Shown piece by piece: positions 5,849-30,053 of a DNA stretch of 32,000 nucleotides (the stretch's first letter is position 1; each line of letters begins with the position of its first letter). Source of the DNA: Mucisphaera calidilacus (lineage in GTDB: Bacteria > Planctomycetota > Phycisphaerae > Phycisphaerales > Phycisphaeraceae). The notes below the pieces were generated by a model. The model searched no databases. It was not told the origin of the DNA and saw only the letters and a list, made by a program, of their open reading frames with translations. The translations under genes were made by a program, and so were the position numbers. The stretch is taken from NCBI RefSeq assembly GCF_007748075.1, contig NZ_CP036280.1:690001-722000 (forward strand), in the 5' to 3' direction.

Positions 5849-6550
5849 ATGAATGATGTTGTTCAACTTGTGCTCGCTCAGGACCCGGGCGACGTGCCGG
5901 GTGGCGTGATGATGTTCTTTCAGGCCGGCGACAGCTTCGGTCAGGTGATCCTGATCATCCTGTGGCTGATGTCCTTCGTGGGTGTGGCGGCGGCGGTGTG
6001 GTCGTGGACGCGGGCGCGCGGCGAACTCGCTCTGCCGAAGAATCTCGAGCGTGGCCTGCTGGAACCGGCTCGTCGTGGCGATCTACGCGAGGTGCGGTCG
6101 GCGGCGCAGAGCCTGCGGGGTGTCTTCGGCCGGCTGCTGCGTGCGGTAACCGGTTCGCCGGTGGGCGAGGCGGCGCGTCACGCGGCGGACGAGGCGGCGG
6201 GCATCGAGTGGCAGAAGCTGACGCGGCCGGTCGAGGCGATCGCCCTCATGGGCCAGGTGGCCCCGATGGTCGGGCTGTTCGGCACGGTCTACGGCATGAT
6301 CCGGGCCTTTGTGGCGCTGGTGGAGTCGGGCCCGGCGGGTGGTGGCGACCTCAAGCTGGCCGCGGGCATCTCGACCGCGCTGGTCACGACGTTCTGGGGC
6401 CTGGTGGTGGCGATTCCCGCATCGATCATCGCGCAGGTGCTGCTGAGTTCGATCGAGCAGCGGTTGAGTGAGGCGTTGTCGGTCGCTCAGCGGATCGCGG
6501 GGATGATGCAGGGCGGCGATCCGGACGCCGATGCCGACGGACAAGGATGA
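5849..6550 (+). CDS. MotA/TolQ/ExbB family proton-channel protein
   Basis: 233 aa with three predicted TM helices. Family signature GQVAPMVGLFGTVYGMIRAF is present. A GGAG sits about 10 nt upstream of the ATG. Confidence 0.85.
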   Translation: MNDVVQLVLAQDPGDVPGGVMMFFQAGDSFGQVILIILWLMSFVGVAAAVWSWTRARGELALPKNLERGLLEPARRGDLREVRSAAQSLRGVFGRLLRAVTGSPVGEAARHAADEAAGIEWQKLTRPVEAIALMGQVAPMVGLFGTVYGMIRAFVALVESGPAGGGDLKLAAGISTALVTTFWGLVVAIPASIIAQVLLSSIEQRLSEALSVAQRIAGMMQGGDPDADADGQG

Positions 6551-7030: not shown

Positions 7031-7503
7031 AGCACCACCGCCAGTCACGCTTCGCCCGTCGCAGCAGTGTCGGCTCGCTGCCGGTGGCGCTGGTCGACGT
7101 CGTCTTCCTGCTGCTGATTTACTTTGTGGTGGCGTTGGACATCACGCCCGACCGTGCCGAACTCGACATGCCGTTGCCTTCGCCGGACCCGGCGGCGGCG
7201 ACGCCCGAGCGGCTACCTGTCCAGCCGATGCGCATCGAGGTGGTGGCGACGGCCGAGGGCTGGGGCGCTACCGTCCCGGGGCGGCTGGGCTACGCGACCG
7301 ATCTGGTGACGTTCAAGCTCGCGGTGGAGCGGCTGGTGTTTGATCCCGAGGCGCGCGGGCCGACGGGTTACGTGATGTCTGAGGACCCGGTGCTGCTGAG
7401 CATGAGTGACGGCCTGCCCTGGGACCTCGCGGTGAACCTCGCCGACGCGGCACGACAGGCGGGGCTGCGGGCCGTGGCTCTCGACCCGGAGGTGCTGCCT
7501 TGA
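7027..7503 (+). CDS. ExbD/TolR family protein (paralogue 2)
   Basis: 158 aa with TM LPVALVDVVFLLLIYFVV and conserved Asp (D24). Its start overlaps the previous stop by 4 nt (ATGA). Confidence 0.8.
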   Translation: MKHHRQSRFARRSSVGSLPVALVDVVFLLLIYFVVALDITPDRAELDMPLPSPDPAAATPERLPVQPMRIEVVATAEGWGATVPGRLGYATDLVTFKLAVERLVFDPEARGPTGYVMSEDPVLLSMSDGLPWDLAVNLADAARQAGLRAVALDPEVLP

Positions 7504-10007
7504 TCCGATGCCTGCTGGTCGTGCTGCTGCTGGTCGGGCTTGTGCGCGCGCAGGAGTTATCCGTTGAGGATCTGACCGAGCAGGTGGAGCGTCAGACCGA
7601 GCGGGTGCGTGACGGACGCGTCTCGGCGGAGGATCGCGAGTCGGCGGTGCTGGAGCGGGTCGAGTCGCTGCGGCAGCTGGTAGTCGGCTTCCCGGAGGAC
7701 GAGGCCTACCCCGAGCACCTCGCGAACTGGGCCGAGGCCGTGCTTTACGAGCGGCTCGGTGCGCTGGAGAGTCTGGCAGTGGTATCCCACGAGTTCGGGA
7801 TACCGACCGAGGCGCACCGTCAGGCGATGGAGCAGACGCTTGGTGAACTGATCGAGCGGCTCGAGGCATTTGATGTCAACGACGACAGTGTCGACGAGCC
7901 GCTGCGCTGGCGGCTGCTGATGTCGTTGGCGACGGCCCGGCACGCGGCGGGGTTCCTGCCGGCCTTCGATCCCGAGGACACGCGCAGTGACGCATTGGTG
8001 GACATCTACCGGATTGTGGATGAGATCGATCACCGGCCGGTGCCTGCGGCTGTCCGGGTGCTCGAGGCTCGGGTCCGGCTGGCGCTGGGGGAGCTGCTTA
8101 CGGCAGGGGAATTGGTCGAGCCGCTGCTCGAGGTGGAGCCGTTGCCGATGGACGGCACCCACCGACTGGCTCAGCTCGTGCTGGCCGATTCGCTGCGGCG
8201 ACGTGGTGAGACAGAGCGCGCGGACGTGGTGGTGGCGGCACTCAGTCGTCGGTTGACCTCGGCTGCCGACGCGGCCTGGCGTCTGGTGATTGCTGATTGG
8301 CGTTACCGGGGACGTCCTGATCTTGAGATCTACCGGCCGCTGACGCTCGCGGGTCCAGGCGTGGCGTGGATCCGTGCCGTGCTCGCCGAGCGGTGGCTCG
8401 AAGCCTATCTCGATGCGTCCGAAGCAGAGATCGCATCGCTCCCGCTCTGGGTCCGGACACAGCTGCTGCACTCGGCGTGGGAGCGGCTGCCGGTTCATCC
8501 CGTCGAGGCACTGGCCTTTTCTTCGTCGGTGATGCTCGGCGACAGCGAGCGCGAGCGGCTGGTCTGGGTGGGACGGCTGGCCCGGATGCTCGCGCAGTCC
8601 ACGGACCTGCTGCACGACGCCAGGCAGGAGGCGGAACGGATCGCGGTGCTTGCCGAGTTTGCACGTTCCGATCGACGTCCCGAGGACGCGGTCGCAGCGG
8701 CAGAGGATCTGTTGGATCTGGCCGAGCGCAAGCGTCGCACGGCCGCCGCGGTGCTGGTGCGTGAGGCCGCGGACCTGCTCTGGCCGCACCAGTCGGCCTT
8801 CGTCACGGCAGACGAAGACCCGCTGACACCCTTGCTGCTCGAATCGATCGGCCGCGTCTTCGCCGAAGCGCCCCGGCTGCTGGCCGACACGCCGAACCAC
8901 GTGCTGATGGTGGCGCATTACATCGACCGGGTGGGCGTCGGAGCGCAGGAGGCCGTTGCGTTCTATCGACGGGTGCCGCTGGAGGCACTGGGCTACTGGC
9001 AGGCGCAGCCGCTGCTGCTGGTCGAGCTGCGTCGTGGGGCGAAGGAGACGATCGATCCGCCGGTGCGTCAGCGTCTGAGGCGTGACCTGCTGCTGGAGAT
9101 GGCGAGGCTGGATGCCGAGGGCGCACGCCAGCTGATGGACGAGGACGCCACGATCGCGCGTCGTGACGGGGCACGCACGGCCCTGTTCCGAGTCCGGCTG
9201 CTGCGTGCCGAACTGGCGGCGGAGGCGGGGGACGTCGCGTCGGGCCAGCGATGGTTGCAGGAGGCCGTTGCGATCGACGGCAGGCCGCGTGCGCGGCTCG
9301 AGGTCGCGGTGGTCCAGACCCGTTTCCTGATCGAACGCGACGACATCGCCGGTGCGCTGGAACGACTGAACCGCCTGCCGGCCCGAGAGTCGGTGGTGCG
9401 GCGTCTGGCGATCGACATGCTCAACCGCGTCGGCAGCCGACTCACGCCTGTCGCACTGCTGGAACTCGACCCGCCCGATGCATCGGTAGAGGTCATGCCG
9501 ACCGACCCCGCAGTGCTCGGGCTGGCCGAGCGGCTCTCCGGACGCAGCGTGGAGCAGATCGATCCCGCGGACCCAGACCCGGCGGCGCAGGCCGAGCTGT
9601 ACGCGGCTCGCCTGCTGCGTGCGCACATGCTGCTTCTGCGTGGTGATGCTGCGGCCTCCGCGACGCTCGCGGGCGAACTGGTCGAGGGCGCGTTCGCGAC
9701 GCCCGAGGTCATCGAGCTGGCGGTGGTGGCCAACCTGCGCGTCGGGACGCGCGTGTCTCTGTTTAACGCCTCGCTGATGGCGGATCGCGTGATCCAGGGC
9801 TACGACGCCCCGCCGTTCCCCGATCGCTGGTGGCGTTGCTGGCTCCGGCGACTGCTGATTCTTGAGCGGCTGCGCGTCGGGGTGGCTCAGGTCCCTCCCC
9901 AGGTCCGGCGGCTCCAGCGGATCAACCCGAACCTCGGCGGGCCGGAGCTCAAGCCGCGCTTCATCGAGCTGGCCCAGAGGGCCTCAACGCCGGCCGCGTC
10001 GGAGTGA
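7500..10007 (+). CDS. Secreted 835-aa all-helical (TPR/solenoid-like) protein of unknown function
   Basis: The TTG start overlaps the exbD-2 stop (TTGA). N-terminal signal peptide MIRCLLVVLLLVGLVRA-QE. The rest is rich in Leu/Ala/Arg/Glu and has no catalytic motif I recognise. Strong GC3 bias supports this frame over the 689-aa antisense ORF. Confidence 0.7.
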   Translation: MIRCLLVVLLLVGLVRAQELSVEDLTEQVERQTERVRDGRVSAEDRESAVLERVESLRQLVVGFPEDEAYPEHLANWAEAVLYERLGALESLAVVSHEFGIPTEAHRQAMEQTLGELIERLEAFDVNDDSVDEPLRWRLLMSLATARHAAGFLPAFDPEDTRSDALVDIYRIVDEIDHRPVPAAVRVLEARVRLALGELLTAGELVEPLLEVEPLPMDGTHRLAQLVLADSLRRRGETERADVVVAALSRRLTSAADAAWRLVIADWRYRGRPDLEIYRPLTLAGPGVAWIRAVLAERWLEAYLDASEAEIASLPLWVRTQLLHSAWERLPVHPVEALAFSSSVMLGDSERERLVWVGRLARMLAQSTDLLHDARQEAERIAVLAEFARSDRRPEDAVAAAEDLLDLAERKRRTAAAVLVREAADLLWPHQSAFVTADEDPLTPLLLESIGRVFAEAPRLLADTPNHVLMVAHYIDRVGVGAQEAVAFYRRVPLEALGYWQAQPLLLVELRRGAKETIDPPVRQRLRRDLLLEMARLDAEGARQLMDEDATIARRDGARTALFRVRLLRAELAAEAGDVASGQRWLQEAVAIDGRPRARLEVAVVQTRFLIERDDIAGALERLNRLPARESVVRRLAIDMLNRVGSRLTPVALLELDPPDASVEVMPTDPAVLGLAERLSGRSVEQIDPADPDPAAQAELYAARLLRAHMLLLRGDAAASATLAGELVEGAFATPEVIELAVVANLRVGTRVSLFNASLMADRVIQGYDAPPFPDRWWRCWLRRLLILERLRVGVAQVPPQVRRLQRINPNLGGPELKPRFIELAQRASTPAASE

Positions 10008-10062
10008 CTACAATCCGGGCCGGGAAGACTTGTTACTGACAGACTGTGAGGAACGACCGTTG

Positions 10063-11681: not shown

Positions 11682-12580
11682 TGAGTTTCGAGAACCGGGA
11701 CTATTACCGTGGTGAAGGCGGCGGGGGCTACCGCGGGGGCGGCATGGGCATGGGTGGCGGGCGTTTCTCGGGCGTGGTCAAGTGGCTGCTGATCATCAAC
11801 GTGGTGATCTACCTCTGGGACGGCATCATGCTCAGCAGCGCGCGTGGGCAGATGCTCGCGCTGATCCCGTGGAGCTATTTCTCGGTCGACCTGGCGATCT
11901 ACAACCTGCAGATCTGGCGTTTCATCACCTACCAGTTCATGCACTCGCCGAGCGACTTCACGCACATCCTCTTCAACATGATCGGTCTCTACTTCTTCGG
12001 CCCGCTGCTCGAACGGACGATCGGCAGCCGGCGGTTTCTGGCCTTCTATCTGCTCTGCGGTGTGAGTGGCGCGGTGGTGGCGTCGCTGCTGGGCGCGATC
12101 CCGGGGCTGATTTTTATGCCGCCAGAGATCCCCCTCGTGGGCGCGTCGGGCTCGCTCTTCGGCATCCTCGCGGCCTGCGCGGTGCTCTTCCCGAACATGC
12201 GGGTCATGCTGCTGTTCCCGCCGATTCCCATGACCATGCGCACGATGGCCTTTGTCTTTCTGGGGATCGCGGGCCTGTCGGTGCTCGCCGGGGCCATGAA
12301 CGGCGGTGGTGAGGCGGCCCACCTTGGCGGGGCGCTGCTGGGCTTCGTGCTGATCCGCAACCTGGGCTGGCTGAGCTTTGCCGACGGCGTCTCGCTGGAG
12401 GCATCCAGATCGGCCTTCGCACGCAAGATGGGCGAACTGCAGAAGGAGCAGCTCGCCAAGGAGCAGAAGGAAGTGGACCGCATCCTCGACAAGGTCCGCG
12501 AGAAGGGCCTGCAATCGCTCTCCAGCCGGGAGAAGAAGATCCTGCAGAAGGCAACCGACCGCCAGCGGAAGGCAAGCTGA
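11681..12580 (+). CDS. Rhomboid family intramembrane serine protease
   Basis: Multi-TM core with catalytic GASGSLFG (GxSG) and a downstream AHLGGALLG His. The ATG overlaps the Nudix stop (TGATG). The ORF-track start at 11480 lies inside the Nudix gene. Confidence 0.8.
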   Translation: MSFENRDYYRGEGGGGYRGGGMGMGGGRFSGVVKWLLIINVVIYLWDGIMLSSARGQMLALIPWSYFSVDLAIYNLQIWRFITYQFMHSPSDFTHILFNMIGLYFFGPLLERTIGSRRFLAFYLLCGVSGAVVASLLGAIPGLIFMPPEIPLVGASGSLFGILAACAVLFPNMRVMLLFPPIPMTMRTMAFVFLGIAGLSVLAGAMNGGGEAAHLGGALLGFVLIRNLGWLSFADGVSLEASRSAFARKMGELQKEQLAKEQKEVDRILDKVREKGLQSLSSREKKILQKATDRQRKAS

Positions 12581-12615
12581 GCCGGTTTCCGGTTTTCCGT
12601 TACCCTTGACGGGCT

Positions 12616-13857
12616 ATGCCTGCCTTGACCTACACCTTGCTGCGGGAGGATGGTGACCCCGGATCCCGGGCACGGCTGGGCCGCGTCGAGACGCCTCACG
12701 GCGGGTTTGACACCCCCGCGTTCATGCCGGTTGGGACCGCCGCATCGGTCAAGGGGCTGCTGCCCGAGGCCGTCGGGAGCATCGGCGCCCAGATCATTCT
12801 CTCGAATACCTACCACCTCCTCCTGAGGCCCGGCGAAGAACTCGTGCAGCGCATGGGCGGTCTGCAGAAGTGGATGCGCTGGGACGGCCCGGTGTTGACC
12901 GACTCCGGCGGCTACCAGGTCTTTTCCTTCGCCGACAAGAACAGCATCGGTGACGATGGCGTCAAGTTCCGGTCACACCTGGATGGCCGCGAGATCCACC
13001 TGAGTCCCGAGCGGTCCATTGCGGTTCAGAACGCGCTGGGCGCGGACATCATCATGGCCTTCGACGACTGCCCGCCGGCCCCCGATCGGCCCGAGGTGGT
13101 GGAGGCGACGGCGCTGGGACCCCGGCACGCGGTGCCCGACGCGGAGTATCAGGCCCGTCTGGCACAGGCCAACGACCGGACCGCCCGCTGGCTTGCGCGA
13201 TGCGTCAAGGCTCACCAGCGACCCGCGGATCAGGCGCTCTTCGGGATCGTGCAGGGAGGGATCGATCTCGATGCACGCAGGCAGAGCGTCGAGCAGGTCT
13301 GTCAGCACGACCTGCCCGGGTTCGCGATCGGCGGGGTAGCGGTCGGGGAGGGGTTCGACCAGCTCAAACGGGTGACCGAGCACACGGCTCCGCTGCTGCC
13401 CGAGGATCGGCCCCGCTACCTGATGGGGGTGGGGTACGAGCGGGACCTCGTGACGGCGGTGCGGGCCGGCGTGGACATGTTCGACTGCGTTCTGCCGACG
13501 CGAAACGCCCGGAATGCCAACGCTTTCACCCCCTTTGGCCAGATCCGGCTGCGGAACGCTCGCTTTTCGGAAGACGAGCGGGTCCTCGACGCCGGGTGCG
13601 ACTGCCCCGCCTGTGCGGGCGGGTTTTCCCGTAGCTACCTCAGGCACCTGTTTATTGCCGGCGAGATGCTGGGCGGGATCCTGCTGTCGTTGCACAATCT
13701 GAGGCACTTCCAGCGGCTGATGTTGGACATTCGGGCTGCGATCCGGGATAACACGTGGTCCGCCGTCGGCCGACACTGGCCGGTGACCCTGGCCGAGGGG
13801 CCGGGGACGGTGCGAAGCGATGGCCGTGACCTCTTGGAGTCTGATGCCGATGTCTAA
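12616..13857 (+). CDS. tgt: tRNA-guanine transglycosylase (queuine tRNA-ribosyltransferase)
   Basis: TDSGGYQVFS, GGVAVGE, MGVGYERD, VDMFDCVLPTR and the zinc motif CDCPAC...H. It carries about 30 extra residues after AFDDC (about 13072..13170) and a C-terminal extension. The tgt-yajC-secDF gene order is conserved. Confidence 0.9.
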   Translation: MPALTYTLLREDGDPGSRARLGRVETPHGGFDTPAFMPVGTAASVKGLLPEAVGSIGAQIILSNTYHLLLRPGEELVQRMGGLQKWMRWDGPVLTDSGGYQVFSFADKNSIGDDGVKFRSHLDGREIHLSPERSIAVQNALGADIIMAFDDCPPAPDRPEVVEATALGPRHAVPDAEYQARLAQANDRTARWLARCVKAHQRPADQALFGIVQGGIDLDARRQSVEQVCQHDLPGFAIGGVAVGEGFDQLKRVTEHTAPLLPEDRPRYLMGVGYERDLVTAVRAGVDMFDCVLPTRNARNANAFTPFGQIRLRNARFSEDERVLDAGCDCPACAGGFSRSYLRHLFIAGEMLGGILLSLHNLRHFQRLMLDIRAAIRDNTWSAVGRHWPVTLAEGPGTVRSDGRDLLESDADV

Positions 13858-14281
13858 TTCCCTGCCGGTCTGGGTTGCCCAGGCCGCCACGAATCCCGAT
13901 GCCCCCAACGTCGTCCCCGACACGCTCCCCGCAGCACCCTCCGCCCCGGGCGGGGTTGAGGGCCAACCGGGCACGACCGACCCCACGATGCAGCAGCAGC
14001 AGGCGACGGGGGGCGGTTTTGAATTCATGATGCTGATCTTCCTCGGCGTCATGGTTCTGATGCTCTTCTTCTCCTGGCGCTCGCAGTCGAGCGAGAAGAA
14101 GAAACGCGAAGCCATGCTCAGCAGCCTCACCAAGGGCGCCAAGGTCCAGACCATCGGCGGGATCCTCGGCACCGTGACCCAGCTCAAGGACGATGAGGTC
14201 GTTCTGCGCGTGGACGAGGGAACGACGCTCCGCTTCACGCGGGGTGCCGTGCAGTCGGTCCTCGACGAACCGGATGCGTGA
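13844..14281 (+). CDS. yajC: Preprotein translocase subunit YajC
   Basis: Single TM FMMLIFLGVMVLMLFF followed by the YajC-typical KGAKVQTIGGILGTVTQLKDDEVVLRV. The ATG at 13844 has GGAG 4 nt upstream. ATGs at 13820 and 13850 are alternatives. Confidence 0.8.
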   Translation: MPMSNSLPVWVAQAATNPDAPNVVPDTLPAAPSAPGGVEGQPGTTDPTMQQQQATGGGFEFMMLIFLGVMVLMLFFSWRSQSSEKKKREAMLSSLTKGAKVQTIGGILGTVTQLKDDEVVLRVDEGTTLRFTRGAVQSVLDEPDA

Positions 14282-14365
14282 TCCCGGGGGGATGAAACGA
14301 ATGTCTTGCCTCTTGGCTAGAGAGGTTGTCCAGCCTACGGGCTTATCGATCGGAAACGGCTGACG

Positions 14366-17300
14366 ATGAACGTGCCTGCCTGGAAGTGGATTCTGGTCCT
14401 CGTGGTGTTCGGGGTGTGCTTTGCGGCTTTCTGGCCGCCCGAGCAGCGGCTCAAGCCGGGTCTGGACCTGGCCGGTGGCACGACGCTGGTCTACACGGTG
14501 GATATCCCCGGCGGTCGTGATCCGGCGCAGGTGATCGACGAGACCATCGACGTCCTCCGAGACCGCATCGACCCGACCGGCACCCGCAACCTCGTCTGGC
14601 GACGCGTGGCCGGCAACCGCGTCGAGATCCAGATGGCCCTCGCCAGCCCCGAGACGCGCGAGCGCCGCGAGGCTTACTACGACCTGCAGGCGCAGGTGCT
14701 CGAACGCAACATCGACCGTCGACGACTCGACGCGGTGGTGCGGCTCGCACCCGAAGCCCGTGACCGAGAGATGCAGGCGATCGCCGGCGACGATCAGCAC
14801 TATTTCGAGAAGCTCCAGCTTTACGCGGCGACGCAGGATTTTGCAGCGGCCCTGCGCGAGCCTTACGAGGCAGCGGTGGCCGCCTTCGAGGAGCAGCAGG
14901 CACGGCTCGACGCGATGCCCGAGGGCAGCGACGGCCGCGCGACCGTCGAGGCTCGCGTGGATGACCTGTTCGAGGCGATGCAGGAGGCGACCCGAGCCTA
15001 TCTCGAAGCCCGCACCCAGCGTGACGAGGCCCGTGCCGCGGTGCTCGCAGCCAACATCGAGCCTTACGAGATCCAGCGGGTCCTCGATCAGCCGACACGG
15101 CCCATCGATAACGATGACCCCCAGGGCCCGACCTACCGCGGCGTCGCAGAGGAAGAGATGATCGCGGCCCACGACGACCGCGCCGAAGTTCTCGAGAAGC
15201 TCTTCGAGGCCTGGACGGCCTACGAGGCGGTCAAGGGCCCGCTCGACGACCCTAACGACCTGATCGCTCTGCTCCGCGGCTCCGGCGTGCTCGAGTTCCG
15301 CATCGCCCCTTACGTCGATGAGATCCCCGCGGAGACCTACCTCGAGCAGCTGCGTGAACGCGGCCCGCGCGCGGGTGGCGATCAGCCGTTCCGCTGGTTC
15401 GAGGTCGACGAGCCGGAAGACTTCGAGCCGGACCCGCAGACGCTCGTCACCGAGTACGCAGGCAACCAGTACATCCTCCTCTCGAACACACGCGACAAGG
15501 CGCTGACCAAGGACACCGAGGGCTGGCAGCTCGTCTCCACCTCGCCGACGCAGGACAATGTCGGTCAGCCGGCCGTGGCCTTCACGCTCAACGACTTCGG
15601 CGGCCAGCTGATGTCGCAGATCACCGGCCCGAATCAGGGCAAGCCGATGGCGATCATCCTCGACAACCGGGTGATCTCGGCTCCGACGCTCCGCAGCAAG
15701 ATCGGTGCGCGGGGCATGATCTCCGGCGGCACGGGCGGCTTCAACCAGCAGGAACTGACCTACCTGATCCGCACGCTCAAGGCCGGCTCGCTTGAGGGCC
15801 AGCTCAGCGAGTACCCCGTTTCGATCAAGACGACCGGCTCCGCGGCCGGTGCCGACAACATCGCCAAGGGCACCTCGGCGGCGCGGCTCTCGCTGATCGT
15901 CGTGAGTGTCTTCGTCCTGCTCTATTACCTCGTACCGGGAATCGCGACGACGCTCGCGCTGGCGTTCAACATCGTCATCATCCTTGGCGTGATGGCCATG
16001 CTCGGGGCGACCTTCACCCTGCCGGGTATCGCGGGCATCGTCCTCACCATCGGTATGGCGGTCGACGCCAACGTTCTGATCTTCGAGCGCATCCGCGAGG
16101 AGCTTCAGGACAAGAAACGCGAGCTGATGATTGCGGTGCGCAACGGCTACGACAAGGCCTTCTCGTCGATCCTCGACGCCAACCTCACGACGCTGCTGAC
16201 CTGCGTCATCCTCGGCGCGACAGCGACCTCGGACATCAAGGGCTTTGCCTACACGCTCGGCATCGGCATCGTGGCCACGCTCTTCACCTCGCTCTTCGCC
16301 ACCCGCGTGTTGATTGAACTCTACCTCTCGCGTGTGCGCTCCCTGCCCATGCTCACGCTGGTTTTCCCGTTCATCCGGACCCTTCTCCACCCGCGTCTCG
16401 ACTGGATCGGGCTGCGCTGGATGGTGCTCCCGCTCTCGATCACACTCGTCAGCTGGGGCGTCTGGATGGTCAACGAGCGTGGTGAGGACCTCCTGGACAT
16501 CGAGTTCCGCTCGGGCACGCAGGTGAGTTTCACGCTCAGCGACGAGGGCATGATGGAAAACGCCGAGGCTCGAACGCGCGTCGAGGCGCTCGGCGAGGTC
16601 TCGCGGGCCATGAAGGCCGAGGGCTTCGACCCCGCGTCGCTGTCGCCCGTGCAGTCCGAGCTTCTCCCCGTCGTGGCCGGCATCGAGCAGGACTCCGCCG
16701 ACCGGGTCGCCCGGCAGATGGCCGACTACGAGCAGTCGATCGAGGAGGGGCTGACCGCCGAGGCCCCGGGCAAGCCCGCCGACCTCTCGCTCCTGATCGG
16801 GGCCGCGGTCGTTCCCGAGGGTGACATCGAGGGCACCCGGGCATCGGGCTTCAGCGTCTCGTCGCTGATCACCGACGCCGACGCTGTTTCGGCCGCGGTC
16901 AAGGCCGCCTTCGCCGACGTGCTCGACACCACACGCCCGATCCGCTTCGCCGATTCGGGCATCCGCTCGGTCGGGCAGGCACCGGTCTTCGCCATCGCGG
17001 AGTCGGACGGTGAAGTCGCGACGCTTGGCGACAACATCGGACGCCCGGAGGTGACCACCGACGTGACCGAGTTCCTCGGCGGTGTGGCGATCGTCCTCGA
17101 TGACCTCCAGCCGCCCGCGACGCTCGACGACCTCGAGCAGCGCATCGAGCGCATGCGGCGACAGCCGGCCTACGAGCCGCTCGGCTTCCGCGAGTCGATG
17201 GTGATCCCGCTCGACCTGTCGGAGCAGACCACCGAGGACGGCACGCCGCTCTACGACGCGGTGGTGGTGGTGACACGCGACGAGACAACCAACTACGCCG

Positions 17301-18199
17301 AGGACCCCAGCGGCATCGTCGAGACCGACGGGCTGGCCGACACCGAGTGGAGCCTCGTTGTCGATGCCCTGAGCCGGGACACCTCGCTCAACTCCGTCAG
17401 CAACTTCTCGAGCCAGGTCGCCTCCTACCTGCGTAACAACGCCATCGCAGCGGTCCTGCTCTCGATGGTCGGTATCGTCGCCTACATCTGGATCCGCTTT
17501 GCCGGCTTCGACAAGGGACTCGCCGCGACCGCGGTGCTCGCGTTGGCGACATTCGCCGGCGGCCTGGGCCAGCTCGTGATCGCCCAGTGGCTGGGGATCG
17601 CCGTGCGTGGCGAGGGCTTCTGGATCCTGCTCGCGATCGCGGTCACCCCGCCCGCGCTGGTGCTCGGCATCGTGACGTGGTACTTCCCCGCGCTCCGCTA
17701 CGGCCCCGCGGCCATTGTCGCGCTCGTCCACGACGTGACGATCACCCTTGGCGTGGTGGCGACCGCCGGCTGGCTCTACCAGCGGCCCGAGCTCGACTGG
17801 CTGGCCCTGACCGACTTCAAGCTCAACCCTGCGATGATCGCCGCCATGCTCACCATCGTCGGCTACTCGCTCAACGACACGATCGTCGTCTTCGACCGCA
17901 TCCGCGAGAACCGCGGACGCCTGCCCTACGTCACCAAGGCGATCATCAACGAGTCGATCAACCAGACGATCTCGCGAACGATCCTGACCTCATTCACCAC
18001 GTTCCTCGCCGTCTGGGTGCTCTACTACTTCGGCGGCGACGCGGTGCACGGCTTCGGCTTCGCCATGATCATCGGCGTCCTCGTCGGTACTTACTCGTCG
18101 ATCGCGATTGCGGCTCAGCTCCTGCTCATCGGCCGACGACCGGTCGGCGATGAGGCTCCGCCCGAGGACAAGCTCCCGCCGATCGTCAGCGAGCGCTAA
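14366..18199 (+). CDS. secDF: Fused protein-export membrane protein SecDF (unusually large, 1277 aa)
   Basis: SecD N-terminal TM plus GLDLAGGT motif. SecD TM bundle with GMAVDANVLIFERIREE. SecF bundle with VALVHDV and GYSLNDTIVVFDRIRE. It follows tgt-yajC as in the classical operon. Confidence 0.9.
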   Translation: MNVPAWKWILVLVVFGVCFAAFWPPEQRLKPGLDLAGGTTLVYTVDIPGGRDPAQVIDETIDVLRDRIDPTGTRNLVWRRVAGNRVEIQMALASPETRERREAYYDLQAQVLERNIDRRRLDAVVRLAPEARDREMQAIAGDDQHYFEKLQLYAATQDFAAALREPYEAAVAAFEEQQARLDAMPEGSDGRATVEARVDDLFEAMQEATRAYLEARTQRDEARAAVLAANIEPYEIQRVLDQPTRPIDNDDPQGPTYRGVAEEEMIAAHDDRAEVLEKLFEAWTAYEAVKGPLDDPNDLIALLRGSGVLEFRIAPYVDEIPAETYLEQLRERGPRAGGDQPFRWFEVDEPEDFEPDPQTLVTEYAGNQYILLSNTRDKALTKDTEGWQLVSTSPTQDNVGQPAVAFTLNDFGGQLMSQITGPNQGKPMAIILDNRVISAPTLRSKIGARGMISGGTGGFNQQELTYLIRTLKAGSLEGQLSEYPVSIKTTGSAAGADNIAKGTSAARLSLIVVSVFVLLYYLVPGIATTLALAFNIVIILGVMAMLGATFTLPGIAGIVLTIGMAVDANVLIFERIREELQDKKRELMIAVRNGYDKAFSSILDANLTTLLTCVILGATATSDIKGFAYTLGIGIVATLFTSLFATRVLIELYLSRVRSLPMLTLVFPFIRTLLHPRLDWIGLRWMVLPLSITLVSWGVWMVNERGEDLLDIEFRSGTQVSFTLSDEGMMENAEARTRVEALGEVSRAMKAEGFDPASLSPVQSELLPVVAGIEQDSADRVARQMADYEQSIEEGLTAEAPGKPADLSLLIGAAVVPEGDIEGTRASGFSVSSLITDADAVSAAVKAAFADVLDTTRPIRFADSGIRSVGQAPVFAIAESDGEVATLGDNIGRPEVTTDVTEFLGGVAIVLDDLQPPATLDDLEQRIERMRRQPAYEPLGFRESMVIPLDLSEQTTEDGTPLYDAVVVVTRDETTNYAEDPSGIVETDGLADTEWSLVVDALSRDTSLNSVSNFSSQVASYLRNNAIAAVLLSMVGIVAYIWIRFAGFDKGLAATAVLALATFAGGLGQLVIAQWLGIAVRGEGFWILLAIAVTPPALVLGIVTWYFPALRYGPAAIVALVHDVTITLGVVATAGWLYQRPELDWLALTDFKLNPAMIAAMLTIVGYSLNDTIVVFDRIRENRGRLPYVTKAIINESINQTISRTILTSFTTFLAVWVLYYFGGDAVHGFGFAMIIGVLVGTYSSIAIAAQLLLIGRRPVGDEAPPEDKLPPIVSER

Positions 18200-20020: not shown

Positions 20021-20050
20021 TTGACCTTAGGCTGTAAACGTGCTTAAAAT
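20021..20050 (+). promoter_or_regulatory. Candidate sigma70-type promoter for the response-regulator gene
   Basis: TTGACC (20021..20026), 18-nt spacer, TAAAAT (20045..20050), inside an AT-rich intergenic island about 45 nt upstream of the ATG at 20095. Confidence 0.45.
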
Positions 20051-20094: not shown

Positions 20095-20733
20095 ATGCCC
20101 TCGCTGCTGAGATACCCCGTCTACCTCATTGATGGTGACCCGGAGATCCGGGAATCGGTCGGTGGCTGGCTGGACTGGGCGGGGTATCGTTCGGAGCTGT
20201 ATGACTCCGCGGAGGCTTTTCTCGCCAACGTCGGCGCGGATGCAAGCGGCTGTCTCCTGCTGGCCGCACGCCTGCCCGGGATGGATGGCGTCGCCTTCAT
20301 CGAGCAACTCGGGCGGGAGCACGCACGCCTCAAGGTCATCATGATCTCCGGCCTCGCCGGCATCCCCGACGCTGTACGTTCAATCAAGGCCGGCGCGCTC
20401 GACTTCCTCGAGAAGCCCCTCTCGCGTGACGAGTTGATCAACCGCGTCCGTGACGCCCTCAGGCTCTTCGCCGAACAAGAGAAGGAACGCGAAGAAGTGC
20501 TCGAGCTCCACGAACGCATGCAGACCCTGACCCCGCGTGAGGTGACCGTGATGGGGATGGTCGTTCAGGGCATGCTCAACAAGCAGATCGCCGAGGAACT
20601 GGGGCTGAGTCAGAAGACCGTCGAGGTCCACCGCTCGCACGTCATGCACAAGATGCGGGCTTCGTGCCTCGCCAACCTCATCCGCATGGTCATGAAGGTG
20701 GAGACCTCCGACCTGATCCCTGTCGCGGGCTGA
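20095..20733 (+). CDS. FixJ/NarL(LuxR)-type response regulator with atypical receiver (Ala at the phospho-acceptor position)
   Basis: The receiver has D13, S85 and K107 (FLEKP). The C-terminal LuxR-type HTH reads LTPREVTVMGMVVQGMLNKQIAEELGLSQKTVEVHRSHVMHKM. The segment LLLAARLPGMDG aligns to NarL ILLDLNMPGMNG, placing A57 at the Asp position. Confidence 0.8.
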   Translation: MPSLLRYPVYLIDGDPEIRESVGGWLDWAGYRSELYDSAEAFLANVGADASGCLLLAARLPGMDGVAFIEQLGREHARLKVIMISGLAGIPDAVRSIKAGALDFLEKPLSRDELINRVRDALRLFAEQEKEREEVLELHERMQTLTPREVTVMGMVVQGMLNKQIAEELGLSQKTVEVHRSHVMHKMRASCLANLIRMVMKVETSDLIPVAG

Positions 20734-20800
20734 CGCCCAGCGTGCCGGGGTGCGCGGATGTATTACAATTCCAGCCGGGATGACTCTGATGGAGCCGTGA

Positions 20801-23215
20801 TTGACTGCGCTGACGCTCGAGACGTTGATGACGTGGACGGATGAGGAGGAGGCTCGACGACTCTGGTCGGTCGCCGAGCGTCTGCCCGAGCGTTACCTGC
20901 AACACACCTCCGACGCGGGCAAGCTCGAAGACCTCAGGGTTCTCGCGCGGCTGTCACGCGAGCGTCCGGTCGAGGTGTTCGTCCAGCAGGTGGACGACCA
21001 CGACTGGTCGGTCGCGGTCTACGCCATCGACCGGGCCTCCGAATTCGCGGCGATCGCCGGCGTCCTCGCCTCGATGGGCTTCGAGGTGCGTGGCGGGCAG
21101 GCCTACACCCTCCCCGGAGCCGCGAAACCCGTTGCCTCGACCTCAGCGCCCGCGCGCATGCTGCGCGGGCTGCGTTCGCCCCGTGGGTTTCGGCGGCGCG
21201 TGACCCCACCCCGGTCGGGCGGGGCCCTGATCATCGACCGCTTCCGGGGCCACCGCACCCTCGTTTCGGACGATGCAAGCAACGAGGAGGCCGGACACGC
21301 CTGGCAGGTGGCGCTGCGCGATCGCCTGATCCAGACGCTGGAGGAACTCCACCGCTGCGCCGACGACGATGCGGTCCGTGCCTTGGCCGATCGCGTGACC
21401 GAGAGCGTGCTCAGCGTGCTCTCCGACCAGCCGACCGCCGTGGCCCGCGCTGCGCTGCTCCCCATCGAACTCGACCTCAAGCGCGTGGGCGATCGACGCA
21501 TCAGCCTGGAGGTGCGCGCCTCGGATACGCCCGCCTTCCTCTACACGCTCGCCACGGCACTCGCGGTGCGCGGCCTGGCGATCGATTCGGTGGAGATCCG
21601 CACCGACGACTCGGGTGAGCAGGTGGTGGACCGTTTCGAGCTCTCGCTGCCGCCGAGCATCACGGAGATCACCGACGACCTGCTCGACCGCATCCGAGTC
21701 TCGGCGTTGCTGATCAAGCAGTTCGGCTACCGCGTCGACCAGACACCCGAGCCGATCAAGGCGCTGGCACGGTTCCAGGACCTGCTCGAAGACATCTTTC
21801 TGCGCCGCAACCCCGCGCTGCTCAAGGCGTGGATCGAGCTGAGCGAACACGACCGCGCGATGCGCGGCCTCGCCAGGCTGCTGGGCACCTCGGACCGCCT
21901 CTGGGAAGAGTGCATCCGCGGCCAGTCGGAACGGCTGATCGACATCCTCCGCGCTCACAGGCGCGAGCAGTCGGTTGTCGGGACGCAGCAGAGCATGCCC
22001 CAGCGACTCGAGGAGGCACTGGACCGCGCCATCGGCATCGAGCAGCAGCGCGACCGTCTCAACGCCTTCAAGGACGACGAGCTGTTCCGCATCGACGCCG
22101 ACTACATCCTCGACCGCAAGTCCGATTTTTCGCGCTTGTCCGAACGACTCACCCAGCTCGCCGAGATTCTCGTCGGCCGATCCGCAGAACTTGTCTACGA
22201 GGACATGGTCGCCTCCTACGGCCATCCGGTCTCGTCCGTGCAGCAGCCCGCACAGAGCGCGATGCCCGGCGGGCTGATGTGCCCCGCTCGGCCCCGCCGT
22301 GGCTACGCGGTCTTCGCACTCGGCAAGCTGGGCGGCACCGCGATCGGCTTCGGCTCGGACATTGAGCTGCTCTACGTGCACGATCAGGACCCGAACGCCA
22401 CCACTGCCGGCGGCAAGCGCCCCGGGATCAGCTGCGCGGAGTTCTATACGCAGTTCACACAGGAGGCCTCCGCCTTCATCCGCGCCCGACGTGACGGCAT
22501 CTTCGAGCCCGACCTGCGCCTACGGCCCTACGGCAACGACGGCCCGCTGATCCCCGGCGTCGAGCTGTTCGAACGCTACTACGGGCCCGGCGGCCCGGCC
22601 CACCCCTTCGAGCTGCTCTCGCTCGTGCGCCTGCGTTGGATCGGTGGCGACCCGGAGCTGGGCTACCGCGTGCAGCGGCTGCGCAACCAGTTCGTCTACG
22701 AGCAGGCCGAACGCGTCCTCGACCTCGACGCGCTCTGGTCGATCTGGGGCCAGATGAAAAAGCAGAAGCTGCCCAACCCCCAGCGGATCAACGCCAAATA
22801 CAGCCCGGGCAGCCTCGTCGACCTCGAAGGGGCGTTGTTGATCCTTCAGGTCGCGCACGCGGAGCACGTCCCGCAGCTTCGAACGGCGAGGATGTCGCGT
22901 GCCTTCGAGGCGATGCGCCTGGGCGGCGTGCTCTCGCCTCAGGCCTACGCCGACGTGCGTGGCGGCTACAGCTTCCTGCGTCGCCTGATCAACGCCCTGC
23001 GCGTCGTCCGCGGACACGCCAAGGACCTCTTCCTCCCTGAGCCTGGATCGACCGAACTGACGCACCTCGCCCGCCGCACGGGCTATCCGCTCCCCACACC
23101 CGAAGACCCGACACCCTCGGGCGAACGCCTGCTCCAGGACTTTGAGTACCACACCGGGCGCATCCGCGTTTTCATCGAGCAGACGCTCGGCCGAAGATGC
23201 CCCGGCATCGAATGA
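20801..23215 (+). CDS. glnE: GlnE-like glutamine synthetase adenylyltransferase-family protein: two N-terminal ACT-like domains plus a single nucleotidyltransferase module
   Basis: GlnE signature FALGKLGGTAIGFGSDIELLYVHD, then EPDLRLRPYG, LVRLRWIGGD and KYSPGSLVDLEGALL, collinear with one E. coli GlnE module. ACT-like segments are WSVAVYAIDRASEFAAIAGVLASMGFEV and ISLEVRASDTPAFLYTLATALAVRGLAIDSVEIRT. The start is TTG at 20801, with ATG at 20828 as an alternative. Confidence 0.75.
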   Translation: MTALTLETLMTWTDEEEARRLWSVAERLPERYLQHTSDAGKLEDLRVLARLSRERPVEVFVQQVDDHDWSVAVYAIDRASEFAAIAGVLASMGFEVRGGQAYTLPGAAKPVASTSAPARMLRGLRSPRGFRRRVTPPRSGGALIIDRFRGHRTLVSDDASNEEAGHAWQVALRDRLIQTLEELHRCADDDAVRALADRVTESVLSVLSDQPTAVARAALLPIELDLKRVGDRRISLEVRASDTPAFLYTLATALAVRGLAIDSVEIRTDDSGEQVVDRFELSLPPSITEITDDLLDRIRVSALLIKQFGYRVDQTPEPIKALARFQDLLEDIFLRRNPALLKAWIELSEHDRAMRGLARLLGTSDRLWEECIRGQSERLIDILRAHRREQSVVGTQQSMPQRLEEALDRAIGIEQQRDRLNAFKDDELFRIDADYILDRKSDFSRLSERLTQLAEILVGRSAELVYEDMVASYGHPVSSVQQPAQSAMPGGLMCPARPRRGYAVFALGKLGGTAIGFGSDIELLYVHDQDPNATTAGGKRPGISCAEFYTQFTQEASAFIRARRDGIFEPDLRLRPYGNDGPLIPGVELFERYYGPGGPAHPFELLSLVRLRWIGGDPELGYRVQRLRNQFVYEQAERVLDLDALWSIWGQMKKQKLPNPQRINAKYSPGSLVDLEGALLILQVAHAEHVPQLRTARMSRAFEAMRLGGVLSPQAYADVRGGYSFLRRLINALRVVRGHAKDLFLPEPGSTELTHLARRTGYPLPTPEDPTPSGERLLQDFEYHTGRIRVFIEQTLGRRCPGIE

Positions 23216-23287: not shown

Positions 23288-24700
23288 TCAGATGTCGTAG
23301 TACATCATGAACTCGTGCGGGTGCGGGCGGAGACGCAGCTCGTCGACCTCGTTCTCCATCTTGTAGTTGATCCAGGTCTCGATGACGTCGGGTGTGAACA
23401 CGTCGCCCTTGAGCAGGAACTCGTGATCCTTCTCCAGCGCGGCCAGCGCTTCCTCGAGGCTCGCCGGCGTCTTGGGGATGCCGGCCGCTTCCTCGGGGGA
23501 GAGGTCATAGATGTTGACGTCGAGCGGGTTGCCCGGGTCGATCTTGTTCTGGATGCCGTCGAGCGCGGCCATCAGCAGAGCCGAGAAGGCGAGGTAGCCG
23601 TTCGCGGTCGGGTCGGGGCAGCGGAACTCGAAACGCTTGGCCTTGGGGCTCTTGGAGTAAACCGGGATGCGGACGGAGGCCGAGCGGTTACGCTGGCTGA
23701 TCGCGAGGTTGACCGGCGCCTCGTAGCCCGGGACCAGACGCTTGTAGCTGATCGTGGTCGGGTTGGTGAAGGCGATCAGGGCCGCTGCGTGCTTGAGGAC
23801 ACCGCCTACCGCGAACAGCGCGGTCTCCGACAGGCCCGCGTAGCCGTCGCCGGCGAACAGCGGCTTGCTGTCCTTCCAGAGCGACAGGTGGGTGTGCATG
23901 CCCGAGCCGTTGTCTTCGAAGACGGGCTTGGGCATGAAGGTCGCCGATTTGCCGAAGGCGTGCGCGGTCGACTTCACGATGTACTTGTACTTCATGAGCA
24001 TGTCGCCCATGGCCACCAGATCGCTGAACCGCATGTCGATCTCGCACTGACCCGCGGTCGCCACCTCGTGGTGGTGACACTCAACCGGGATGCCCGCGTC
24101 GAGCATGTGCATGATCATCGCCGATCGCAGGTCCATGAGCGTGTCGGTCGGCGGGCAGGGGAAGTAGCCTTCCTTCAGGCGGATCTTGTGCCCGAGGTTC
24201 GGGCCCTCGTCCGCGCCCGAGTTCCAGACCGCCTCGGTCGAGTTGATCGAGTAGAAGGACGTGTCGCGCTGCGAGTCGTACTGCACGTTGTCGAAAACGA
24301 AGAACTCGGCCTCGGGGCCGATGAAGCAGGTGTCCGCGATGCCGGTCGACCGCATGTGCTCGATCGACTTCTTGGCGATGTTGCGGGGGTCACGGGTGTA
24401 ATCCGAGCCGGTCACCGGGTCGGCGATGTTGCAGATCAGGCAGAGCGTGGGGATCTCGCGGAACGGATCAATAAAGGCCGTGTCCGCCTGCGGCTTGAGC
24501 AGCATGTCCGACTCGTTGATCGCCTGCCAGCCGCGGATCGAAGAGCCGTCGAAACCGAAGCCCTCCTCAAAGCAATCCTCGGTCAGCTCGGAGATGGGGT
24601 ACGAGGTGTGCTGCCAGGTTCCGGGGAAGTCGCAGAACCGAAGATCGAGGATCTTGCAGCCCTTTTCCTTGGCGAGTGCAATCACTTCTTTGGGTGTCAC
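23288..24700 (-). CDS. glnA: Glutamine synthetase, type I
   Basis: 470 aa. Motifs are [30 protein letters not shown] and the adenylylation loop NIYDLSPEE (Tyr398, codon 23507..23509). GTG start preceded by AAAGGAA. Confidence 0.95.
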
Positions 24701-28064: not shown

Positions 28065-28358
28065 GGAGTTCCTTCGGGTTGCGTTCGACGGCAGAGGCGG
28101 CACAAGCAGCCCGGCTGGAAGGAGAGTCAGCAACCGTGTGGAACGCGCGGTCGGCCGGGTAGTGCGGGGCTAGCCCGACGGTGGCCGCCAGTGGGGAATC
28201 TAGTACTGTACCATAAATCGTCCATCAGTAGGGATTGTCGCCATAATTCACGGCCTGAGCGCGGTTTAGTGTCACTTTTCTGATTTGTGTTGGAGTCTTT
28301 CCTGCGAGCGGCTACGCTTCAACCTCGGGAAGATTCATTCAAGGAACGAGGAAGAAAC

Positions 28359-30053
28359 ATGGGTATGAAATCGCTCAGTGTCGCCGCGTCGCTCCTGATC
28401 ACCGGCGGTTACGCCCTGGCTCAGACCAACCCGATCATCCCGGTTGTCCCGAAGACGCCCTGGAAGGTCGTGCTCGAAGAGGTCGTCACCATCCCCGACA
28501 GCCTGGGTACCTACCCGCGACTGGAGGAACTGACCCACGCCCCCGGTTCAGACGACGCCTTCGTGCTCGATCAGAACGGCACCATCTACCGCTTTGATCC
28601 CTACGCGGCCAACCCGACGCCCCAGGTCTTTCTTGATCTCAACAGCGCCGTACCCGCCGGTTTCAGGACCGGTTCTCAGGAGGGCCTGCGCGGTCTTGCC
28701 TTCCACCCCGACTTCGCCACACCCGGAACCGACGGCTACCGCAAGTTCTATACATCCCACAGCCGCAGCGCGTTCACGGGCATTTACTTCGGCGACGGCG
28801 TGACACCCGTCATCTACGGCGCACCCGGCGGTGTCGATCACGACGCCTACGTCGCCGAGTGGAGCGTCAACCCCGACGGCAGCGTCGACACCGATTCGTA
28901 TCGCGAGATCCTGCTGGTCGGGCAGCCCCGAGCCGACCACAACATCGGCCAGATCGGGTTTGACCCGACCGCGCAACCGGGCGAAGACGACTACGGCAAT
29001 CTCTACATCACGCTGGGCGACGGCGGCGGACCCAATGACCCCAGCAATCTCGCCCAGAACACCAGCCAGCCCCACGGTTCCATCCTCCGCGTCGACCCGC
29101 TCCGCAACGGCAGCGACCCCTTCAGCCTGCCCGACAATCCACTGCGCACCAGTGACTCGCTCACCAACGCACGCAACCTTATCTATGCCTACGGCGTCCG
29201 AAACCCGCACAAGTTCACGGTCGATCCGGTGACCGGCAACTTCATCTTCAGCGACATCGGTCAGGCGAACATCGAGGAGATCAACATCCTCGAGCCGGGA
29301 GCTAACTACGGCTGGGACCTGCGCGAGGGCACCTGGACCCTCAACAGCAGCAACGTCCCCGGCACCCTCCCACCCAACCACCCCACCGACTCGGCCACCT
29401 ACCCCGTCGCCCAGTACGACCACGACCCCGAGAACGACGGCGTCAACGGCTCCTACGCCGTGGCAGGCGGGCACGTCTACCGCGGCAGCAGCGTGCCCGA
29501 ACTCACCGGCATGTACCTGTTTGGCGACTTCGGCACCAACCCCGGACCGATCTACGCCGTCGACGCTGACGACCTCACCCAACGCGATGACTTCACCGAC
29601 ATCGATCAGATCTTCGGCGGGTATCTCGCTCCGCTTGTTGAACTGACGCTCAACACCGAGGGCGACGCGACCGACAAGACCTTCCTCGACATCGTCAAAG
29701 AGACCAACCCCTTTATCCCACGCACCGACCTGCGCTTCGGCATCGACGCGGCGGGGGAGATCTACATCCTTTCCAAACGCGACGGCAAGGTCCGACGCAT
29801 CAGCGCGGTCATCGGGCTGCTCGCCGGCGACGCCAACCGCGACGGGATCGTTGACCTGCTGGACCTGAGCCTCCTCGCCTCCGGCTTCGACGGGCCCGGC
29901 GACTGGGGCTCAGGCGACTTCAACGCCGACGGGCTGGTCAATCTGCTCGATCTCAGCCTGCTCGCCAGCAATTTCGGCCAGACCTCCATCCCCCAGCCCG
30001 CCGTCGGGTTGATCATGCTCACGATGCTCTCGGGGTTCCGCCGCGGGGCCTGA
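28359..30053 (+). CDS. Secreted PQQ-dependent (glucose/sorbosone) sugar dehydrogenase-like beta-propeller with C-terminal dockerin repeats and PEP-CTERM-like anchor
   Basis: Signal peptide MGMKSLSVAASLLITGGYALAQ. Family motifs HNIGQIGFDP, LYITLGDGG and YAYGVRNPHKFTVDP...IGQANIEEINILEPGANYGW. Two dockerin-like repeats (DANRDGIVDLLDLSLLAS and DFNADGLVNLLDLSLLAS). The tail reads IPQPAVGLIMLTMLSGFRRGA. The ATG at 28359 follows AAGGAACGAGGAAG. Confidence 0.8.
   Translation: MGMKSLSVAASLLITGGYALAQTNPIIPVVPKTPWKVVLEEVVTIPDSLGTYPRLEELTHAPGSDDAFVLDQNGTIYRFDPYAANPTPQVFLDLNSAVPAGFRTGSQEGLRGLAFHPDFATPGTDGYRKFYTSHSRSAFTGIYFGDGVTPVIYGAPGGVDHDAYVAEWSVNPDGSVDTDSYREILLVGQPRADHNIGQIGFDPTAQPGEDDYGNLYITLGDGGGPNDPSNLAQNTSQPHGSILRVDPLRNGSDPFSLPDNPLRTSDSLTNARNLIYAYGVRNPHKFTVDPVTGNFIFSDIGQANIEEINILEPGANYGWDLREGTWTLNSSNVPGTLPPNHPTDSATYPVAQYDHDPENDGVNGSYAVAGGHVYRGSSVPELTGMYLFGDFGTNPGPIYAVDADDLTQRDDFTDIDQIFGGYLAPLVELTLNTEGDATDKTFLDIVKETNPFIPRTDLRFGIDAAGEIYILSKRDGKVRRISAVIGLLAGDANRDGIVDLLDLSLLASGFDGPGDWGSGDFNADGLVNLLDLSLLASNFGQTSIPQPAVGLIMLTMLSGFRRGA

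Follow-up and report, generated by a model that had tools for sequence, protein, structure and literature searches.

A one-module GlnE-family protein with a GlnD-type ACT pair in Mucisphaera calidilacus, a member of a widespread and uncharacterised subfamily

The adenylylation of glutamine synthetase (GS) through the cascade of GlnD, PII, GlnE and GS is a textbook model of metabolic signalling and, to our knowledge, has been dissected almost only in Proteobacteria and Actinobacteria. Canonical bifunctional GlnE, or ATase, as represented by the E. coli enzyme, consists of two modules, one for adenylyl removal (AR; Protein Data Bank (PDB) entry 1v4a) and one for adenylyl transfer (AT; 3k7d), and its AR and central regions receive the PII signals. 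The subject of this report is a gene at 20801..23215 on the + strand of a 32-kb window (the whole 32,000-nucleotide stretch that was analysed) from Mucisphaera calidilacus, contig NZ_CP036280.1. Its 804-aa product shares with canonical GlnE the fold, the motifs, the PF03710 plus PF08335 module and, presumably, the loop Tyr of GS as substrate, but it has one module where canonical GlnE has two, is without the AR part, and carries an additional N-terminal region of 300 residues that profile comparisons identify as a GlnD-type ACT pair.

Among described proteins, engineered truncated forms of GlnE, namely E. coli AT-C and H. seropedicae delta-NT-GlnE (residues 438-928), have the domain content of the C-terminal 500 residues of the window protein. 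The H. seropedicae form, which retains the central and AT domains, AMPylates GS in vitro, responds to glutamine with a half-maximal inhibitory concentration (IC50) of ~87 uM and is unaffected by unmodified GlnB (bioRxiv 10.64898/2026.09.02.748916). The same preprint states that a C-terminal glutamine site had previously been established for E. coli. These, however, are laboratory fragments of two-module enzymes, whereas the window gene is natural and encodes the ACT pair in addition. GlnD itself ends in lead-in helices, ACT1 and ACT2 that are homologous to the N-terminal region of the window protein, and PF08335 is common to both; its response to glutamine depends on the ACT domains (Zhang et al. 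2010, as cited in PMC11190351). Unlike GlnD, the window protein is without the HD domain and the GlnD-type N-terminal nucleotidyltransferase, bears its ACT pair at the N-terminus instead of the C-terminus, has a basic insert in ACT1 and shows Ala in place of a loop Gly. GlnD-like ACT domains also serve as glutamine-responsive modules on unrelated catalytic domains in plant ACR11 and the Chlamydomonas alpha-amylase AMA2 (PMC11190351, PMC3173338), with catalytic partners and lineages that differ from those of the window protein. A more distant likeness is offered by the AMPylation domain of Legionella DrrA/SidM, a single GlnE-like module that gives a weak structural match (6yx5, E 1.7e-3); this is a eukaryote-directed effector acting on Rab GTPases, without ACT domains and unrelated to nitrogen control. 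DrrA/SidM only adds adenosine monophosphate (AMP), its removal being performed by the separate enzyme SidD, and it is thereby a precedent for AT-only logic. A literature search in which most subscription journals lay outside the coverage found no report of an ACT-bearing or naturally one-module GlnE.

The gene is an intact open reading frame (ORF) that starts at TTG, with GGAG 6-10 nt 5' of this codon. An alternative ATG at 20828 would yield a 795-aa form (P0001). The TTG start is plausible because the extended N-terminus ('LTALTLETL') matches that of P0002, a 75%-identical homologue ('MSLLTQETL'). Pfam GlnE (PF03710) was found in a single stretch (residues 357-625, 112.4 bits against a cutoff of 24, E 3e-32), followed after the nucleotidyltransferase core by PF08335 (GlnD_UR_UTase; residues 662-794, 36.7 bits against a cutoff of 21), which forms the C-terminal helical domain at 22784..23182 (+). 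Both domains that define the GlnE superfamily score above their cutoffs, which places the protein in it. Locally built module hidden Markov models (HMMs) likewise recognised one GlnE module, and neither they nor Pfam found the tandem AR and AT modules of canonical bifunctional GlnE in the window protein, in keeping with the single module claimed by the initial annotation. Against NCBIfam, residues 310-795 align with the bifunctional GlnE equivalog models through the C-terminal half of each, the match to PRK11072 covering model positions 514-916 of 946 (E 2.5e-42), with scores that fall far short of the equivalog cutoffs (145 vs 487, 114.5 vs 625 and 112.3 vs 724 bits for PRK11072, PRK14108 and PRK14109, respectively).

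Ahead of the nucleotidyltransferase core lies a helical region at 21752..22219 (+), delimited by the start of the PRK11072 match at model position 514 of 946 and by Foldseek alignments of 519-524 columns to 3k7d; we take it to be the region N-terminal of the AT core in 3k7d, termed the central or regulatory domain. The core itself spans 22289..22702 (+) and aligns with 'GKLGGWELGYSSDLDL' of the E. coli AT. It contains the motif GKLGG...GSDIEL at 22322-22369, which comprises the G-loop and the catalytic D-x-E (GKLGGTAIGFGSDIEL), and DLRLRPYG at 22511-22534, whose DLRLRP part occupies 22511-22528. Two further motifs, FKDDELFRIDADY at 22067-22105 and SLVDLEGALL at 22811-22840, complete a set that had been read correctly, and in these places, from the first. 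The G-loop, the D-x-E and the third Asp are all intact, and GKLGG...SDIEL and DLRLRP are invariant in the family. An AlphaFold2 model of the whole protein is confident, with a predicted local distance difference test (pLDDT) score of 84 and a predicted template modelling (pTM) score of 0.79. The gene thus encodes a real, intact single-module member of the GlnE family.

Two other identities were considered and rejected. A truncated or mis-assembled two-module gene is contradicted by the position of the stop: the ORF stops at the alignment column where four other short forms stop, an end that coincides with those of many independent short forms, and the 72-bp gap to a convergent glnA leaves no room for a second module downstream. 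The protein is not GlnD either, as its nucleotidyltransferase is of the GlnE type and no HD phosphohydrolase domain was matched in it by Pfam.

The type of the retained module was determined with HMMs of AR and AT modules derived from 57 canonical two-module GlnE proteins that were split into N-terminal (AR) and C-terminal (AT) parts. Control fragments of the E. coli enzyme, rebuilt from PDB alignments, behaved as expected (AT, +113 bits towards AT; AR, -100). The window module prefers the AT HMM by +63 bits, as do the first modules of all 21 family members scored, whereas the second modules prefer AR in 16 of 16 cases. Profile-profile comparison with hhalign agrees, scoring the first module at 461.8 against AT and 409.5 against AR, and the second at 498.8 and 619.6. 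While a strict search for columns diagnostic of AR or AT gave none, relaxed criteria gave six, at four of which the window residue is that of AT and at none that of AR; at one of these, AR modules have an Asn with 100% conservation ('ELN') and the window protein has a Gly, and another is a Lys/Arg column. The solved structures rank in the same order, both by sequence (84.6 bits for E. coli AT 3k7d vs 69.2 for AR 1v4a) and by Foldseek (E 7.5e-18 over 519 columns vs E 1.2e-15 over 452), with 3k7d as the best solved relative, covered nearly end to end. Placed against the two halves of GlnE by profiles, hhalign, columns and fold, the single module is therefore well supported as AT type, an assignment that stops short of proof because the neighbour-joining bootstraps given below are weaker than these other lines.

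The N-terminal ~300 residues are, on statistically solid profile evidence, a GlnD-type ACT pair. NCBIfam GlnD models match residues 4-284 through their ACT-bearing C-terminus (E 1e-7 to 2e-10), the match being confined to the ACT region and scoring 21-39 bits against cutoffs of 519-1010. When a profile of 18 family N-terminal regions was aligned by hhalign with the C-terminal 266 residues of GlnD proteins from related loci, 239 columns spanning the lead-in helices and both ACT domains were matched at 98.85% probability (E 4.2e-17). The resemblance to the GlnD ACT pair that had been noticed by eye in the initial annotation is borne out by both comparisons. An AlphaFold2 model of the N-terminal module alone (pLDDT 82, pTM 0.82) agrees with that of the whole protein and predicts three helices, then strand-strand-helix-strand-[insert]-strand-helix, a long linker helix, and strand-strand-helix-strand-strand-helix, with ACT-like patterns at ORF residues ~57-185 and ~223-311 where pLDDT is mostly >85. 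To judge by the order of the secondary-structure elements, the strand that lies beside strand 1 of the ACT-like units appears to come from the N-terminal, not the C-terminal, side.

In coordinates of the + strand, the predicted helical lead-in (ORF residues ~15-50; AlphaFold2 helices at P0001 6-41) lies at 20843..20950 and is homologous to the helices before ACT1 in GlnD, where it aligns with 'MSPRYLLYTSTESILEHIRLHESL'. ACT-like domain 1, of order strand-strand-helix-strand-[insert]-strand-helix, occupies 20969..21355, as delimited by the model, by hhalign to GlnD ACT1 and by invariant columns; the Asp in its strand-helix loop (P0001 D68) is invariant in the family. Between strands 2 and 3 of this domain, 21125..21217 encodes a disordered Arg/Pro-rich insert (pLDDT <50 at P0001 100-130), the only long low-confidence segment of the N-terminal region, which contains the basic sequence RMLRGLRSPRGFRRRVTPPR at 21155-21214, varies in length and sequence across the family alignment and is absent from GlnD. 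A long helix at 21365..21427 (P0001 180-200) joins this domain to ACT-like domain 2 at 21467..21733, which is supported by subthreshold Pfam ACT_4 and ACT matches, by hhalign to GlnD ACT2 and by Foldseek template modelling (TM) scores of 0.76-0.81, and which holds the family-invariant loop D-T-P-A-F-L-Y at 21524-21544. The two ACT-like segments (20996..21355 and 21497..21700) and the basic insert that had originally been drawn from the letters agree in position with these modelled elements. Within the family N-terminal alignment, neither ACT domain shows any variation at the loop Asp and neighbouring positions, and the same Asp position is conserved in glutamine-responsive GlnD-type ACT domains (PMC11190351).

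Structural searches with the N-module model found ACT-like domains in 9c7o and 9c7n (probability 1.0, target TM 0.76-0.81, root-mean-square deviation 2.2-2.6). The best solved match of the model of 20828..21751 was the N-terminal region of the M. smegmatis 180-kDa large glutamate dehydrogenase (7jsr, E 2.4e-7), an enzyme that carries ACT-like domains at its N-terminus. Weak Pfam hits to GDH_ACT1, GDH_ACT3 and GDH2_N are also present. An ACT-repeat sensor module may thus be shared among enzymes of nitrogen metabolism.

The window protein had at first been presented as a hybrid. It is not a unique one, as it is the AR-less branch of a large family with the ACT pair before an AT module. N-module patterns in species-representative genomes place the module in at least 554 species, distributed over Phycisphaeraceae, other Planctomycetota, Spirochaetes, Deltaproteobacteria/Desulfobacterota, Verrucomicrobiota, Kiritimatiellae, FCPU426, Firestonebacteria and Chloroflexota, and an exhaustive HMM search of 1.84 billion representatives returned 276 clusters at E<=1e-30 and 1470 at E<=1e-10. 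The family N-module HMM scores the window protein at 301 bits and was matched by none of 59 canonical GlnE proteins. A first search gave 20 proteins with the N module and a GlnE module, of which four are short (~770-800 aa) and 16 long (~1140-1315 aa) with a second, C-terminal module that is AR-type in every one of the 16. Among the best 150 matches that were typed, 48 read N-AT-AR, 42 N-AT (some being fragments) and at least five AR-N-AT (e.g. P0204, P0208, P0228), with the N module directly 5' of the AT module in every complete member examined. The two-module members (N-AT-AR, e.g. P0004; AR-N-AT, e.g. P0204) resemble the window protein in the N-AT unit (34-42% identity), in its invariant residues and in their linkage to glnA; they keep the AR-type module, and the window protein does not. 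In the AR-N-AT proteins P0204, P0208, P0228 and P0195, the ACT pair sits between the two modules of an otherwise canonical-order GlnE.

Clean-ended short forms come mainly from one Phycisphaeraceae/Planctomycetota clade, that of the window protein, whose nearest relatives are from Phycisphaeraceae (37-39% identity in the N module), and in 89.5% of bootstraps the five short forms of the first search are monophyletic. Further short forms make up a second, basal group near the AR-N-AT proteins in tree order. From this distribution in sequence trees, the AR module seems to have been lost or separated on more than one occasion. A separate observation concerns the one-module forms of Planctomycetaceae and Chloroflexota (L034, L057, L071, L073, L010; P0097 and similar), which extend beyond AT by a C-terminal tail of 110-190 residues; in P0097, the one member scanned, the tail had no Pfam match. 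Public annotations describe family members plainly as 'glutamate-ammonia-ligase adenylyltransferase' or as 'bifunctional' adenylyltransferases. Collectively, the family is a widespread, uncharacterised GlnE subfamily with an ACT pair immediately upstream of AT.

The probable substrate is encoded next to the gene. Separated from it by 72 bp, a convergent glnA at 23288..24700 (-) specifies a type-I GS of 470 aa (Pfam Gln-synt_N and Gln-synt_C; PDB alignment), with the codon of the adenylylation-loop Tyr398 (NIYDL) at 23507-23509 (-) as located by PDB alignment and coordinates. Its closest solved relative is the Synechocystis GS 3ng0 (E 4e-199), which has the same 'IYDLSPEE' loop. Across the family, glnA adjoins 30 of 79 typed loci, 27 of these being among the 62 long-form loci and three among the 17 short-form loci, and mostly lies directly 5' of the family gene on the same strand. 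The order in some long-form loci is amtB-PII-glnA-glnE, and in some a glnD-like gene is close by. PII, GlnD and AmtB were not found in the window by a search of its six-frame ORFs (E 1e-8) or by Pfam scans of the main ORFs, as already stated for glnB, glnK and glnD, nor do they occur within 10 kb of any short-form gene. An AR-type ORF was likewise found neither in the 32-kb window nor within 10 kb of the 17 short-form loci. Bypass of PII, once offered as a consequence of the architecture, does not follow, because two-module members with the same ACT pair share loci with amtB and PII, and in some cases with glnD; the architecture in itself implies no independence of PII.

Upstream, a LuxR/FixJ-type response regulator recognised by Pfam at 20095..20733 (+) ends 67 bp before the glnE-like gene, with a weak sigma-70-like promoter match at 20021-20050 ahead of it. 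The same pair of response regulator and short glnE, on one strand and with a short gap (20095..23215 in the window), recurs in the Phycisphaeraceae loci L005 (9028-12268) and L008 (2493-5624), an arrangement on which the two genes are possibly co-transcribed. The window regulator itself has Ala at the position of the phospho-acceptor Asp ('CLLLAARLPGMDG'; we take 'LILLDLNMPGMNG' of NarL as the comparison for this position) and GD in place of the acidic DD pair, whereas its orthologues in L005 and L008 keep the phospho-acceptor Asp. Judged by these residues, the window regulator may be phosphorylation-independent. A different neighbourhood surrounds the short-form gene P0003, where three genes at 8630-16510 of locus L084 specify an asparagine synthase that depends on glutamine, an HD-domain response regulator and a sensor kinase of very large size, in which an ammonium-transporter domain is fused to PAS/HisKA/HATPase/receiver/Hpt domains. 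This set may represent an alternative ammonium-sensing route in these bacteria.

The explanation that we favour, with moderate confidence, is that the window protein AMPylates the neighbouring GS, that the ACT pair is an allosteric input to AT, and that the protein belongs to an AR-less branch of the subfamily. The modification would fall on the loop Tyr398 of this type-I GS and would lower GS activity under nitrogen abundance. As judged from homology to GlnD, the ACT pair would act as an allosteric amino-acid sensor that gates the adjacent AT site, with glutamine as the leading candidate ligand, and glutamine sensing by analogy with GlnD is plausible. The direct glutamine sensing first suggested as possible would not in itself be new for GlnE, as the truncated H. 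seropedicae enzyme, which has no ACT domain, also responds to glutamine. For this reason the ACT pair may contribute a further signal, or it may take over the reception of PII signals from the regions that are missing. Since the retained module is AT-type and AR is absent, AMP would not be removed by an AR module of the window protein, which sharpens the question of deadenylylation. Candidate routes would be a separately encoded enzyme, turnover and dilution of the protein, or a backward AT reaction driven by pyrophosphate, which has been reported for E. coli ATase.

Several observations weigh against this explanation. In neighbour-joining trees the first-module clade falls on the AT side in just 64.5% of bootstraps, and the exact bipartition of AT and AR has 27% support. 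Pfam ACT is subthreshold in the window protein (ACT_4 at 16.1-18.5 bits over residues 234-275 and ACT at 14.6, against a cutoff of 27), as it is in 13 of 18 family members. An ACT-like fold is nevertheless predicted, and the homologous modules of P0204 and P0208 pass the Pfam cutoff (ACT, 29.1 and 27.1 bits; ACT_ACR9_3rd, 29.4 and 37.3). Linkage to glnA is thin among the short forms, at just three of 17 loci. Cyanobacterial GS is not known to be adenylylated, and 3ng0, a cyanobacterial GS, has the loop Tyr too, which makes this residue necessary but not sufficient. Further, since canonical AT halves sense glutamine without any ACT domain, the ACT pair may bind another ligand or serve another role. 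The function assigned to the subfamily is in the end inferred from homology, structural models and gene context.

Other accounts of the protein have to be set beside this one. The role of the ACT pair is where the favoured explanation is most exposed: it could bind another metabolite, such as a different amino acid, 2-oxoglutarate or a nucleotide, or it could be a dimerisation or docking surface for GS or PII, taking over the part of the AR and central regions. Besides the glutamine response of canonical AT halves, the loop Gly of GlnD (D-x-P-G-L-L) being Ala here (D-T-P-A-F-L) speaks for this, as do the loci that long forms share with PII and GlnD genes and the variable, disordered basic insert of ACT1, which resembles an interaction or tethering segment. 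However, homology to the GlnD region needed for the glutamine response extends over all 290 residues of the module, and the loop Asp residues are invariant, so that we regard such a role as unlikely on balance while taking it as a serious contender. Less probable, though still worth considering, is that the window protein is the AT half of a split enzyme whose AR-type module is a separate gene elsewhere in the 3.49-Mb genome; control would then be conventionally reversible, with the ACT pair as an extra input. Across the family the AR module is found upstream, downstream or not at all, and the basal short forms cluster near AR-N-AT proteins in tree order, as gene splitting would give. The absence of an AR-type ORF within 10 kb of the 17 short-form loci and in the window argues against it. 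Among the best 120 AR-profile matches no stand-alone AR protein was recognisable; all looked like N-terminally truncated fragments of long forms, and none came from the source contig.

It is improbable that the target of nucleotidylylation is not GS but another protein, such as a PII-like one. This would make the enzyme a GlnD-like sensor on a GlnE chassis, with the adjacency of glnA coincidental; the GlnD-derived N module and the 14 of 17 short-form loci that are not beside glnA would fit, and target and chemistry can shift within the superfamily, actinobacterial GlnD adenylylating GlnK. The nucleotidyltransferase core and its flanking domains are nevertheless GlnE AT-type and not GlnD-type, there is no HD domain, and same-strand linkage of glnA and glnE is strong across the family. 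Even harder to credit is a decaying remnant, either non-functional or a regulatory pseudo-enzyme left after AR loss. No other first modules diverge as far as those of the window protein and P0002, which score lowest against the AT profile and have a disordered stretch inserted ahead of the G-loop. Against decay stand an unbroken reading frame, the retention of every invariant catalytic and structural residue, the confident AlphaFold2 model, and a broad short-form clade that is conserved in many genomes of Phycisphaeraceae.

The remainder of the window contains a few genes that deserve mention in their own right. A 1277-aa ORF at 14366..18199 (+) has SecD/SecF C-terminal domains in three stretches, a SecDF P1 head and an MMPL-like region by Pfam, and looks like a fused SecDF; it is overlapped by a longer opposite-strand ORF at 13652..17731, a typical feature of high-GC DNA. 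An 835-aa ORF at 7500..10007 (+), which lies downstream of a MotA/ExbB-like gene (5849..6550), has no Pfam match at E<=0.001. At 28287..30053 (+), Pfam identifies a glucose/sorbosone dehydrogenase-like protein with a C-terminal dockerin type I domain.

While the chemistry of the window protein is the expected one, the fusion of a GlnD sensor to the AT half of GlnE, the three domain orders and the AR-less lineage are noteworthy, and they make long-standing questions of effector sensing and reversibility in the GS cascade directly testable. For annotation, the one-module forms that are labelled 'bifunctional' cannot be so in the classical sense. Should the ACT pair prove to be the effector site, the family would offer compact natural systems in which to study glutamine sensing, the signal path to the AT site, and GS AMPylation without PII or a dedicated deadenylylase. 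The boldest form of the proposal is that a GlnD-derived ACT pair was grafted onto AT, so that GS AMPylation is gated by glutamine or another amino acid without PII, and that the AT-only form of Phycisphaerae has no dedicated removal activity and is either one-way or reversible by pyrophosphate. Taken as a whole this is rather doubtful; if true, the AT-only GS switch of this lineage would follow a regulatory logic different from that of the classical bicyclic cascade.

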